From Escherichia phage vB_EcoS_IME347, in the sequence record MH051918: a stretch of DNA of 50,048 nt, one strand, 5' to 3'. The translations under genes were made by a program, and so were the position numbers. Positions 42,952 to 44,994 of the stretch are shown one piece after another. Position 1 is the first letter of the stretch. Every line of letters starts with the position of its first letter. The notes under the pieces are model-generated. The model was not told the DNA's origin. It saw only the letters and a list, made by a program, of their open reading frames with translations, and searched no databases.

Positions 42952-43059
42952 ATGAAAGAGTTCATCTTGAAAACTGTAATCCCATTCGTTGCCGGAGCAG
43001 CAGTAACGGGCTTCTTTATTTGGGTTTTGTCTTTGGCTGGAGACTTCAACGGTTTCTGA
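42952..43059 (+). CDS. small membrane peptide (35 aa)
   Basis: AAGGAG RBS; hydrophobic translation MKEFILKTVIPFVAGAAVTGFFIWVLSLAGDFNGF; below track cutoff. Confidence 0.25.
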   Translation: MKEFILKTVIPFVAGAAVTGFFIWVLSLAGDFNGF

Positions 43060-43069
43060 GGAAAAATAA

Positions 43070-43246
43070 ATGACTCGTGTAAAGTGCATTCGCAATGATT
43101 CCAAATCGCTCCCGTTCCAAGTGAACCAGATCTACTCTGTGGGCTACCATCACGGCGGCGGGATTTACGAGATCTACGACGGGCAAGGCTCTGCAATCCA
43201 AGCGCCTCTGAACGGATTCTATCTCGAATTCATTGCCGTAAAATAA
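43070..43246 (+). CDS. small hypothetical protein (58 aa)
   Basis: ATG at 43070; followed by an intrinsic terminator; N-terminal motif related to ORF 4726 and 7442. Confidence 0.3.
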   Translation: MTRVKCIRNDSKSLPFQVNQIYSVGYHHGGGIYEIYDGQGSAIQAPLNGFYLEFIAVK

Positions 43247-43271: not shown

Positions 43272-43297
43272 AAAGGGGGCTTTATGCCTCCTTTTTG
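43272..43297 (+). terminator. intrinsic terminator upstream of the lysis cassette
   Basis: gggggc-ttta-tgcctcc hairpin followed by a T5 run. Confidence 0.5.
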
Positions 43298-43367
43298 TGC
43301 TGTTCCTTTTCTGACCCCCTTCCTATATTATATCCCCACTACATTTTTTAACTTTGGGGAATAATCC

Positions 43368-43583
43368 ATGAAAGACTTTATTAACGCTGCAATGTCCGGC
43401 ACGGGCGGAGCAACCCTCACGAGTGCGGCAACCGGGCAGTTGATGATCGCCGCGCTGACCTTCGTTTTCTTTATGTCCTTTGGTGTTTGGGGCGCTTACT
43501 GGAAGTACCGAGACAGCAAAGCGATCCGGGAAGCTATCGACGCCGGGGATCTGAAAACAGCAATCTCAATCAGGAATAAATAA
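43368..43583 (+). CDS. holin (pinholin-like, two predicted TMDs)
   Basis: 71 aa; weakly hydrophobic Gly/Ala/Thr-rich TMD1 and hydrophobic TMD2, charged C-terminus; immediately upstream of the endolysin. Confidence 0.55.
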
Positions 43584-43585
43584 TT

Positions 43586-44083
43586 ATGGGCGCAATCAAA
43601 AATACATTGGTTGCGGCTGGCGTTTCTTCTGCGCTTGTCCTCATGCCGCAACTGATCGAGAAGTACGAGGATGTGAAGTTTGAAGTCTACTACGATATCG
43701 CGGGCGTCCCAACTGTATGCGCTGGCATTACCGGGAAAGACGTGATTATCGGCAAGAAGTACACGAAGCGGGAGTGTGACGCTCTGCTCATTAAGCATAT
43801 CAATTATGCTGCGTCGCAGGTTGATAAAGCCGTCACCTATCCGATCCCGGTAACGATGCGGGCGGCGATGTACAGCTTCGCCTACAATGCCGGAACCGGA
43901 GCGTTTCGCAAATCAACCATGCTCAAACTGATTAATAAGGGTGAGCTTAAAGCGGCCTGTAACGAGCTATGGAAGTGGACTTACTTCTATAACCCCAAGA
44001 CAGGCAAGAAAGAGAAATCGCGCGGCCTGAAGAACCGCAGGGCTTCAGAATTTGAATATTGCATGAAGGAGTTGCCGAAATGA
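43586..44083 (+). CDS. SAR-type endolysin (GH24 lysozyme, phage 21 R / P1 Lyz-like)
   Basis: N-terminal signal-anchor-release-like segment; catalytic region [25 protein letters not shown] and downstream [16 protein letters not shown]...WTY resemble SAR lysozymes. Confidence 0.8.
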
Positions 44084-44463
44084 AAAGAACAATCTTAGCT
44101 TGCTGCATTGCATTCGCTATCAGCACAATGACGGGCTGCGCTTTAAATCCGCTGGATGCGCTGACAGGTAAACCCGAAGTATCTGCGCAGGTTGGCGCGG
44201 AGAACGTAAAGCAGGGGATCGGCGTCACAGCAAAGAACGAGCAGAAGAGCGAAACCAACGTGAAGGATTCGCAGATCGGGAAGGTTGACTCCTCCACCAA
44301 GAAAACGGAGAGCATTAAGGCGGGAACCATTCAGGCCGAACGCATCGAAGTAAACAATGGTGGCGGTTGGGACTATTTCGGATTCGGCTTTATCGTGGCG
44401 TGGGTACTGGCGGCGCTGTTAGTGTGGGCTGTGGAATACCGGAAAAAACACAAGGAGGCTTAG
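44080..44463 (+). CDS. unimolecular spanin (lipoprotein signal + C-terminal TMD)
   Basis: ATGA overlap with the endolysin; lipobox-like MTGC near the N-terminus and C-terminal [23 protein letters not shown], as in the T1 gp11-type u-spanin. Confidence 0.6.
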
Positions 44464-44478
44464 GCCTCCTTTTTTTAT
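44445..44478. terminator. bidirectional intrinsic terminator
   Basis: aaaaaacacaaggaggc-ttag-gcctcc followed by a T7 run, between the lysis cassette and the - strand array. Confidence 0.65.
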
Positions 44479-44598
44479 TCGTACCGGGTAGCGCTCAGAA
44501 TGCAAATTCCGTCGTCGTCTGCGAGGTTGTGACACTTCGCGCCTGATGCCCGCATAGACGACAGGAGGAGCGAAAGTATCGCTGTATTAAACTCCTCC

Positions 44599-44994
44599 TC
44601 ACTGAGCTTGTGCCTTGCGCACAATTCTACGTTCGAATCTATCAACATTTCTATTCTTGCCGAAGAGTTCTTCATCACTCAATTCCTCAATATGCATCAT
44701 TTCCCACGTATAGCGATTGCGATATCCCTCAAGGCAAGCGAATTGCATCATCACCGGGCGCTTACGCTTCCCTTTGCAGAAGTATTCCTGACCAACCCGA
44801 TCCAGATACCCCTCAGTCATGCAGCGAGCGCAAAACTCCTTTGACAACGCACTCGTGAAAGTGCGCTTATCAAGATCTGCATTTCGTGCCATACGCTCAG
44901 TTTCTGGATGCCCGTAAATGAACCGGGCAATATGCTGACGTGTGTACTTGTCGTAACCCTCACAGAATTTGAACAGGTCAAGCAGAATCATCAC
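44599..44994 (-). CDS. hypothetical Cys-containing protein (131 aa)
   Basis: ORF in track directly downstream of the ATPase gene; the alternative overlapping ORF 44475..44678 (-) cannot be excluded. Confidence 0.4.
   Translation of the reverse strand: MMILLDLFKFCEGYDKYTRQHIARFIYGHPETERMARNADLDKRTFTSALSKEFCARCMTEGYLDRVGQEYFCKGKRKRPVMMQFACLEGYRNRYTWEMMHIEELSDEELFGKNRNVDRFERRIVRKAQAQ

Follow-up and report, generated by a model that had tools for sequence, protein, structure and literature searches.

A probable T1-type lysis cassette in the genome of Escherichia phage vB_EcoS_IME347

The stretch of DNA analysed here, called the window below, is the 50,048-nucleotide sequence record MH051918 of Escherichia phage vB_EcoS_IME347 (IME347), read as one strand from 5′ to 3′. 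Three closely packed open reading frames (ORFs), all on the plus strand, fill its positions 43368-44463, and, judged by homology, sequence motifs, signals of membrane topology and the arrangement of the genes, this segment very probably serves a T1-like siphophage as its late lysis cassette, gene-for-gene homologous to genes 13, 12 and 11 of phage T1. The genes are as follows.

43368-43583, plus strand: holin gene, 71 amino acids, T1 gp13 family (PF27028 Phage_T1_holin)
43586-44083, plus strand: endolysin gene, 165 amino acids, encoding a T4-lysozyme-type (GH24) muramidase that belongs to the R21/RrrD subgroup and whose N-terminal domain resembles a signal-anchor-release (SAR) domain
44080-44463, plus strand: unimolecular spanin (u-spanin) gene, 127 amino acids from its ATG, T1 gp11 family

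Only 2 nucleotides lie between the holin stop codon and the endolysin ATG, while the endolysin stop and the spanin start overlap as ATGA, and Shine-Dalgarno sequences as well as coupled starts are found in the cassette. In the mechanical list of ORFs the spanin began at a TTG at 44059, giving 134 amino acids; that start was rejected in favour of the ATG at 44080 because of an AGGAG 8 nucleotides upstream of the latter, the ATGA coupling and the family alignment. A contig of 50,094 bp assembled in Logan from SRR33299908 (L004), with 85-90% nucleotide identity to IME347 across the module, served as the reference for codon comparison. Synonymous and non-synonymous codon differences number 18 and 8 in the holin gene, 49 and 12 in the endolysin gene and 29 and 8 in the spanin gene, which shows purifying selection on all three. 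The only source of this close relative of the whole module (L004, locus 158-2884) is the assembly of a public sequencing run, and even the nearest isolates are far more distant.

IME347 has a complete-looking T1-like genome whose ORF map is collinear with that of T1, and on sequence it is assigned to the T1-like phages within Drexlerviridae, Tunavirinae. Around the cassette the gene order follows T1 genes 16-14-13-12-11-10-9 and also that of Escherichia phage BrunoManser: an exonuclease gene (the homologue of T1 gp16), an ORF of 35 amino acids, a DUF7244 gene (the gp14 homologue), the holin, endolysin and spanin genes, and then convergent gp10-like and helicase genes. Megablast of the structural half of the genome (positions 1-25000) gave approximately 78% nucleotide identity over 56% of its length to SRT8, IME-JL8 and BrunoManser, all of Sertoctavirus, while megablast of the cassette DNA against 50,697 phage records gave no match, the relationship of the cassette to isolates being visible only at the protein level. 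The first-pass annotation had proposed a three-gene lysis cassette at 43368-44463 in a phage of T1-like lineage. Both proposals are borne out, the cassette by its ORFs, family matches, gene order and codon differences, and the lineage by the collinearity with T1 and the identity to Sertoctavirus in the structural half.

The spanin matches PHROG 1804 (‘Rz-like spanin’) at 4.4e-33 and has 41.5% identity to T1 gp11 over 126 of its 127 residues and 64% to the BrunoManser protein annotated as a u-spanin. Membership of the T1 gp11 u-spanin family has been set at no less than 40% identity over no less than 40% of the length (Kongari et al. 2018, PMC6139136), a level of identity that the IME347 protein only just exceeds. 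Two features of the protein are relevant to its anchoring.

44080-44139, plus strand: lipoprotein signal peptide (residues 1-19) and lipobox M17-T18-G19-C20
44377-44433, plus strand: C-terminal transmembrane helix (approximately residues 100-118), followed by the basic tail YRKKHKEA

Cys20 is kept in all 28 family members compared, and in the alignment it falls on Cys22 of T1 gp11, within the lipobox LSGC; with Ala at position +2 there is no Asp inner-membrane retention signal. The lipobox MTGC itself (44128-44139, plus strand) has Met at -3 and is MSGC in the closest relative. An alternative lipobox, ILAC at Cys8, was rejected, as a signal peptide of 7 residues is implausible and it is Cys20 that is invariant. 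The best 19-residue window of the C-terminal helix has a Kyte-Doolittle value of 2.41, a Hessa sum of -1.93 and a GES value of 2.23, and AlphaFold gives helices at residues 2-17, 24-28 (short) and 97-124 (pLDDT approximately 85). The protein has three Cys residues, two in the signal peptide (8 and 9) and one at the lipidation site (20), and so there is none in the periplasmic part. T1 gp11, and only T1 gp11, has been shown to complement a lysis defect of lambda Rz/Rz1 (PMC6139136). The invariant lipobox Cys, the C-terminal transmembrane domain (TMD), the lack of periplasmic Cys and the identity to T1 gp11 support the u-spanin proposed at first pass and place the predicted protein in the T1 gp11 family as that family has been defined in print.

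The endolysin aligns with PF00959 at 116.3 bits (cut-off 22.3; E = 1.4e-33) over profile positions 2-125 of 125, and with PHROG 7 at 1.4e-50. Its best relatives of solved structure are phage 21 R (PDB 3HDE, 1.3e-35; 3HDF) and E. coli RrrD (4ZPU), and it is 47% identical to R21, taken from the phage 21 genome, and 65% identical to T1 gp12. The catalytic residues and the N-terminal segment are located as follows.

43667-43714, plus strand: catalytic motif E28-x8-D37-x5-T43, a regular-expression match at residue 28
43601-43657, plus strand: putative SAR domain, residues 6-24, between Lys5 and Glu25 and without Cys

The GH24 triad motif is E-x8-D/C-x5-T (PMC9239132), and E28, D37 and T43 fall on E35, D44 and T50 of R21 in an alignment that is ungapped, with an offset of +7, across the N-terminal half. 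SAR domains are described as having 1-3 basic residues followed by a charge-free stretch of approximately 20 residues that is rich in weakly hydrophobic residues; they are often missed by hydropathy programs, and the definitive test for them is the experimental one of release by a pinholin (PMC9239132). The IME347 protein begins M-G-A-I-K5, and the single Lys5 is followed, as in that description, by 19 charge-free residues, 10 of them weakly or non-hydrophobic, before E25. Residues 6-24 have a Kyte-Doolittle value of 1.49, a crude Hessa sum of +6.1 and a GES value of 1.31, the first two of which make the segment marginal for stable insertion. The alignment reaches into the SAR region of R21 (residues 11-24 of IME347 with 18-31 of R21), and relatives of the endolysin are annotated ‘SAR endolysin’. 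These data support the endolysin as a homologue of R21, an experimentally established SAR endolysin, with an N-terminus that appears SAR-like; Sec-dependent export, tethering and release triggered by depolarisation are inferred from the family.

At first pass a SAR-like N-terminal segment and GH24 motifs had been noted, and both are present. The protein had also been likened both to phage 21 R and to P1 Lyz, and the former likeness stands, through the identity to R21 and the aligned triad, while the latter is not detectable by sequence, as no P1 Lyz chain is among the PDB phmmer matches of the endolysin even at E ≤ 1. P1 Lyz depends for its mechanism on a thiol-disulfide isomerisation that requires a Cys within the SAR domain. 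Residues 1-24 of the IME347 endolysin have no Cys with which a disulfide cage of that type could be formed, so if the enzyme is regulated this would be in the R21 manner rather than in that of P1.

The holin matches PHROG 2877 (‘holin’) at 5.1e-35 over profile positions 1-71 of 71 and has 63% identity to T1 gp13 and 84.5% to the BrunoManser holin. PF27028 (Phage_T1_holin) is a precomputed label on its homologues, including one in L004 that is 89% identical; scans with NCBIfam and with a version of Pfam lacking PF27028 gave no match for the holin or for the spanin. The full-length profile match, together with the place of the gene directly upstream of the endolysin gene, puts the protein in the T1 gp13 family. 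Behind M-K-D and before a basic tail that begins KYRDSK there is a charge-free run of 42 residues (4-45), and this pattern, M-[KR]-[DE] then charge-free residues 4-45 then basic tail, is kept in 25 of 25 aligned homologues. Across the same 25, G23 is invariant and lies within a nearly invariant A-T-G-Q (residues 21-24). The run can be divided in two.

43440-43502, plus strand: residues 25-45, the one robust transmembrane helix
43377-43433, plus strand: residues 4-22, charge-free, rich in Gly, Ala, Ser and Thr and weakly hydrophobic, a candidate for a releasable TMD1 or else a periplasmic N-terminus

The best 19-residue window of the protein, residues 25-43, has a Kyte-Doolittle value of 1.98, a Hessa sum of -0.33 and a GES peak of 2.36; AlphaFold pLDDT is 89-96 at residues 25-45, and F38, G39 and G42 are invariant in the family. 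Residues 4-22, charge-free in all 25 family members and with pLDDT below 60, have a combined Gly, Ala, Ser and Thr (G+A+S+T) content of 74%, a Kyte-Doolittle mean of 0.68, a Hessa sum of +7.0 and a GES value of 1.24. TMD1 of the phage 21 pinholin S21-68, whose reference sequence was confirmed against the phage 21 genome record (100% identity), has values near these (G+A+S+T 63%, Kyte-Doolittle 0.64, Hessa sum +6.4). A TopPred-style trapezoid score on the GES scale gave the first segment 1.24 in IME347, 1.34 in T1 and 1.11 in S21, all above the ‘certain’ cut-off. TMD1 of S21-68 inserts first and leaves the membrane later (PMC9636201). Cassettes of the T1 gp11 family have been described as consisting of a pinholin, a SAR endolysin and a u-spanin (PMC6139136, the Young laboratory survey; PMC11447400; PMC13164509), and T1-type holins have been called class II pinholins with two TMDs (PMC11447400, PMC6139136, PMC13164509). 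Pinholins of the S21-68 type (class II holins) have two TMDs with both termini inside, the first of them a releasable, weakly hydrophobic TMD of SAR character, and their lesions, of approximately 2 nm, let the membrane depolarise but do not let a cytoplasmic endolysin through. Pinholins are paired with SAR endolysins, and here the adjoining gene encodes a predicted SAR endolysin of the R21 type.

Several observations weigh against the cassette as so read, or against one of its parts. That its ORFs might be chance frames or decayed remnants, with the lysis genes at another site in the genome, has nothing found in its support beyond a few overlapping antisense ORFs of 100-127 amino acids that are themselves unsupported; family E-values of 1e-33 to 1e-50, intact gene lengths, the synteny kept with T1, the synonymous excess in the comparison with L004 and the Shine-Dalgarno sequences and coupled starts all speak against it. 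The probability left to this explanation is negligible, and family matches, synteny and codon differences already refute it. For the spanin, Met at -3 is unusual, being seen only in IME347 and its closest relative while elsewhere in the family the lipobox is mostly L[SAT]GC, some members having V or I at that position, but a variant lipobox, AWAC, has been shown to be functional in the u-spanin family (PMC6139136), and for a family that tolerates such variants MTGC is a minor deviation. The periplasmic domain of the u-spanin family consists of a short helix followed by beta-strand elements (PMC6139136), whereas AlphaFold gives residues 30-88 of the IME347 protein as low-confidence coil (pLDDT below 50) with no strands predicted. 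For the endolysin, the SAR segment is less rich in G+A+S+T than that of R21 (37% against 63%), and a weak Ser-Ser-Ala motif at residues 14-16 is compatible with a cleavable signal peptide. These features, with the basic residue, the short hydrophobic core and the ability of Ser14-Ser15-Ala16 to satisfy the -3/-1 rule, would suit an endolysin that has an ordinary cleavable Sec signal peptide and is a soluble periplasmic enzyme restrained in some other way. A cut after residue 16 would make an unusually short signal peptide, however, and a lysozyme free to act in the periplasm would kill the host too early. With homology along the length to R21, an established uncleaved SAR endolysin, that takes in part of the SAR region, and with relatives annotated as SAR endolysins by specialists in phage lysis (PMC6139136), a cleaved and soluble endolysin is improbable.

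It is the holin for which an alternative carries more weight. Only on the GES scale do residues 4-22 exceed the threshold for a TMD, falling short of it by Kyte-Doolittle and by Hessa, AlphaFold2 gives the protein as a single uninterrupted helix (residues 2-58) with low confidence at residues 1-20, and the GenBank note on the T1 holin states that it ‘contains single transmembrane domain’. Comparison with the S21 pinholin gave a BLASTP E of 2.5 and an hhalign probability of 0.1%. With no sequence relationship detectable by either program, membership of the S21 family was rejected, and any likeness of the holin to S21, as judged from the two sequences, is analogous. The holin gene lacks a dual start of the kind that yields an antiholin from a separate ribosome-binding site: the next Met is residue 9, which lacks an upstream Shine-Dalgarno sequence and is not conserved in T1 or in most relatives, though a dual start is common rather than obligatory in pinholins. 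Even for T1 itself, the assignments of gp13 as a pinholin and of gp12 as a SAR endolysin appear in the published papers to rest on bioinformatics. The same cassette could thus have a single-pass holin with its N-terminus out and its C-terminus in, residues 1-24 being periplasmic from the start and the lesions either small or large. Such a topology would accord with residues 25-45 alone passing on both Kyte-Doolittle and Hessa, with the lack of any loop between the putative helices beyond the conserved T-G-Q, with the unbroken AlphaFold helix and the T1 annotation, and with a net-neutral N-terminal M-K-D and a strongly basic C-terminal flank, charges that favour N-out, C-in. On the other side, TMD1 of S21-68 is equally weakly hydrophobic and yet inserts before it leaves (PMC9636201), charges are strictly absent from 19-20 residues throughout the family, as would suit a segment that crosses or resides in the bilayer, and the published assessments are of two-TMD pinholins (PMC11447400, PMC6139136). 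The first segment and the releasable TMD1 of S21-68 are equally marginal, which would account for the conflict between annotations of the T1 holin with one TMD and with two. A single-pass holin is possible if rather doubtful, and a shade less likely again is its extension to T1-type holins as a whole, by which they would be single-pass, N-out/C-in, ‘pre-released’ analogues of pinholins with a conserved periplasmic N-terminus and no antiholin control, evolved independently of S21. A holin of the T1 family that works like a pinholin is modestly favoured. Of the two-TMD pinholin of the first-pass annotation, the holin is borne out, as a member of the T1 gp13 family. The two-TMD layout is a plausible prediction: the first segment matches TMD1 of S21-68 but is below threshold on two scales, and there is no homology to S21 and one AlphaFold helix.

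If the cassette works as its relatives do, with the dynamic steps inferred from work on phage 21, P1 and T1 (PMC9636201, PMC9239132, PMC6139136), the GH24 lysozyme would be exported by the host Sec system and held inactive, tethered to the inner membrane by its weakly hydrophobic SAR domain (residues 6-24), while the holin builds up in the inner membrane and triggers at a set time. Its lesions would probably be small, of the pinholin type, and formed via helix 25-45 once the N-terminal segment has left the bilayer or if it has stayed outside it. These lesions would collapse the proton motive force, and depolarisation would release the SAR domain and allow the endolysin to refold in the manner of R21, without disulfide caging since the SAR domain has no Cys, so that the released E28/D37/T43 triad could cleave peptidoglycan. 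The u-spanin would meanwhile be anchored at two points, to the outer membrane by lipid on Cys20 and to the inner by its C-terminal helix, and removal of the murein meshwork would free it to disrupt or fuse the outer membrane, with release of progeny.

Intrinsic terminators flank the cassette, and two minus-strand genes converge on the downstream one.

43272-43299, plus strand: intrinsic-terminator-like hairpin with T-run, a 9-bp stem and 5-nucleotide loop, between the DUF7244 and holin genes
44452-44478, both strands: bidirectional intrinsic terminator, lying across the spanin stop codon and closing the cassette
44475-44678, minus strand: convergent downstream gene, PHROG 9539
44599-44994, minus strand: convergent downstream gene, PHROG 2794

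The upstream hairpin bounds the lysis transcription unit on that side and has a folding energy of -15.5 kcal/mol (z = -3.6 against shuffles); the same hairpin is in BrunoManser and an equivalent is at the T1 position (comparison loci L001 2906-2930 and L002 42781-42815). Because this pre-holin terminator is conserved, the lysis genes need either a promoter of their own in the next approximately 70 nucleotides or read-through. A scan for sigma-70 promoters between the terminator and the holin gene gave nothing convincing. An element resembling TATTAT, seen by eye after the terminator, is common to IME347, BrunoManser and L004, and no promoter claim is made for it. The downstream terminator, found on both strands by the scan and with a folding energy of -16.9 kcal/mol (z = -3.9), also serves the convergent minus-strand genes, and a terminator is annotated at the corresponding place in T1. 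The two minus-strand ORFs, which share this terminator with the spanin gene, overlap by approximately 80 nucleotides as listed, and probably the start codon of one of them was mis-set by the mechanical ORF call.

Upstream of the hairpin are two small genes that accompany the cassette.

43070-43246, plus strand: DUF7244 (SH3-like) gene, 58 amino acids, homologue of T1 gp14, directly upstream of the holin gene
42952-43059, plus strand: ORF of 35 amino acids with one hydrophobic helix (MKEFILKTVIPFVAGAAVTGFFIWVLSLAGDFNGF), conserved beside the lysis module

The DUF7244 protein matches PF23896 at 1.6e-28 and PHROG 4788 at 2e-32, the position of its gene is that of T1 gp14 and of BrunoManser bas12_0042, and its codon differences from L004 are 13 synonymous to 2 non-synonymous. 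According to a 2026 paper (PMC13164509), the SH3-like DUF7244 protein is found widely beside Drexlerviridae lysis cassettes and is proposed to have an auxiliary role in lysis; the IME347 gene is probably an auxiliary lysis component. No export signal, signal peptide or TMD is visible in the protein, and this, with the conserved terminator before the holin gene, makes a periplasmic role in cell-wall binding not obvious. The 35-amino-acid ORF is conserved in both BrunoManser (bas12_0041) and L004, and from its L004 counterpart it differs by 11 synonymous and 4 non-synonymous codons. It has no family match in Pfam, NCBIfam or PHROG; as a small membrane protein encoded beside the lysis cassette, its product could be a lysis regulator.

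The cassette adds a new sequence to a T1-type system that has been described thoroughly, with nothing unexpected in it, and its value is mainly one of correct annotation: three lysis functions are assigned in a new T1-like phage and the lineage is confirmed, with the endolysin and holin as possible further sequence variants for engineering. Should MTGC be used, a lipobox with Met at -3 would count as a lipoprotein signal that is non-canonical yet functional. For the T1-family holin, which is very widespread, both topology and hole size still appear to be matters of prediction, and a single-pass T1-type holin, if there is one, would be a holin topology class without prior experimental characterisation.

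Among known systems, P1 Lyz has in common with the IME347 endolysin a GH24-type fold and the concept of a SAR endolysin, but phmmer gave no similarity between the two at E ≤ 1, and the caging Cys is absent from the IME347 SAR segment. R21 of phage 21, in contrast, is a true homologue, with the E/D/T triad aligned and an N-terminal segment of SAR type that also lacks Cys. Like the IME347 holin, S21 of the same phage has 71 amino acids, a net-neutral N-terminus of 3 residues, a segment of approximately 19 residues rich in Gly, Ala, Ser and Thr, a hydrophobic helix and a basic tail; the IME347 holin differs in having neither a dual-start antiholin nor a charged loop between the segments, and no relationship between the two sequences is detectable by BLASTP or hhalign. 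Phage 21 also has a two-component embedded spanin (Rz/Rz1) where IME347 has a u-spanin.

The closest isolates to IME347 are the Sertoctavirus members, Escherichia phages SRT8 and BrunoManser and Citrobacter phage IME-JL8, with identities of 83-85% for the holin, approximately 64% for the spanin and, in BrunoManser, 63% for the endolysin. BrunoManser has the 35-amino-acid ORF and the DUF7244, holin, endolysin and u-spanin genes in the same order as IME347, and the pre-holin hairpin too. Given the limited identity to Sertoctavirus in the structural half (approximately 78% over 56%), IME347 is a different species, probably an undescribed one next to Sertoctavirus and possibly of a separate genus. 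The endolysin is 63% identical to that of Sertoctavirus, 65% to that of T1 and approximately 68% to those of NBD2 and YP10S2, which are other Drexlerviridae, while the holin is 83-85% identical to that of Sertoctavirus, and the contrast between these proteins hints at gene-level mosaicism in the cassette.

T1 itself (NC_005833, 42878-43982, genes 13, 12 and 11) has the same gene order, orientation and neighbours as IME347. The HNH endonuclease gene 15 of T1 is absent from IME347, where the 35-amino-acid membrane ORF occupies its place, and the lipobox is LSGC in T1 gp11 and MTGC in IME347. Protein sizes are 71, 162 and 133 amino acids in T1 against 71, 165 and 127 in IME347, with identities of 63% for the holin, 65% for the endolysin and 41.5% for the spanin. 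The two phages have in common the exonuclease and gp14/DUF7244 genes upstream and the convergent gp10 and helicase genes downstream, and in both a terminator precedes the holin gene and another follows the spanin gene.

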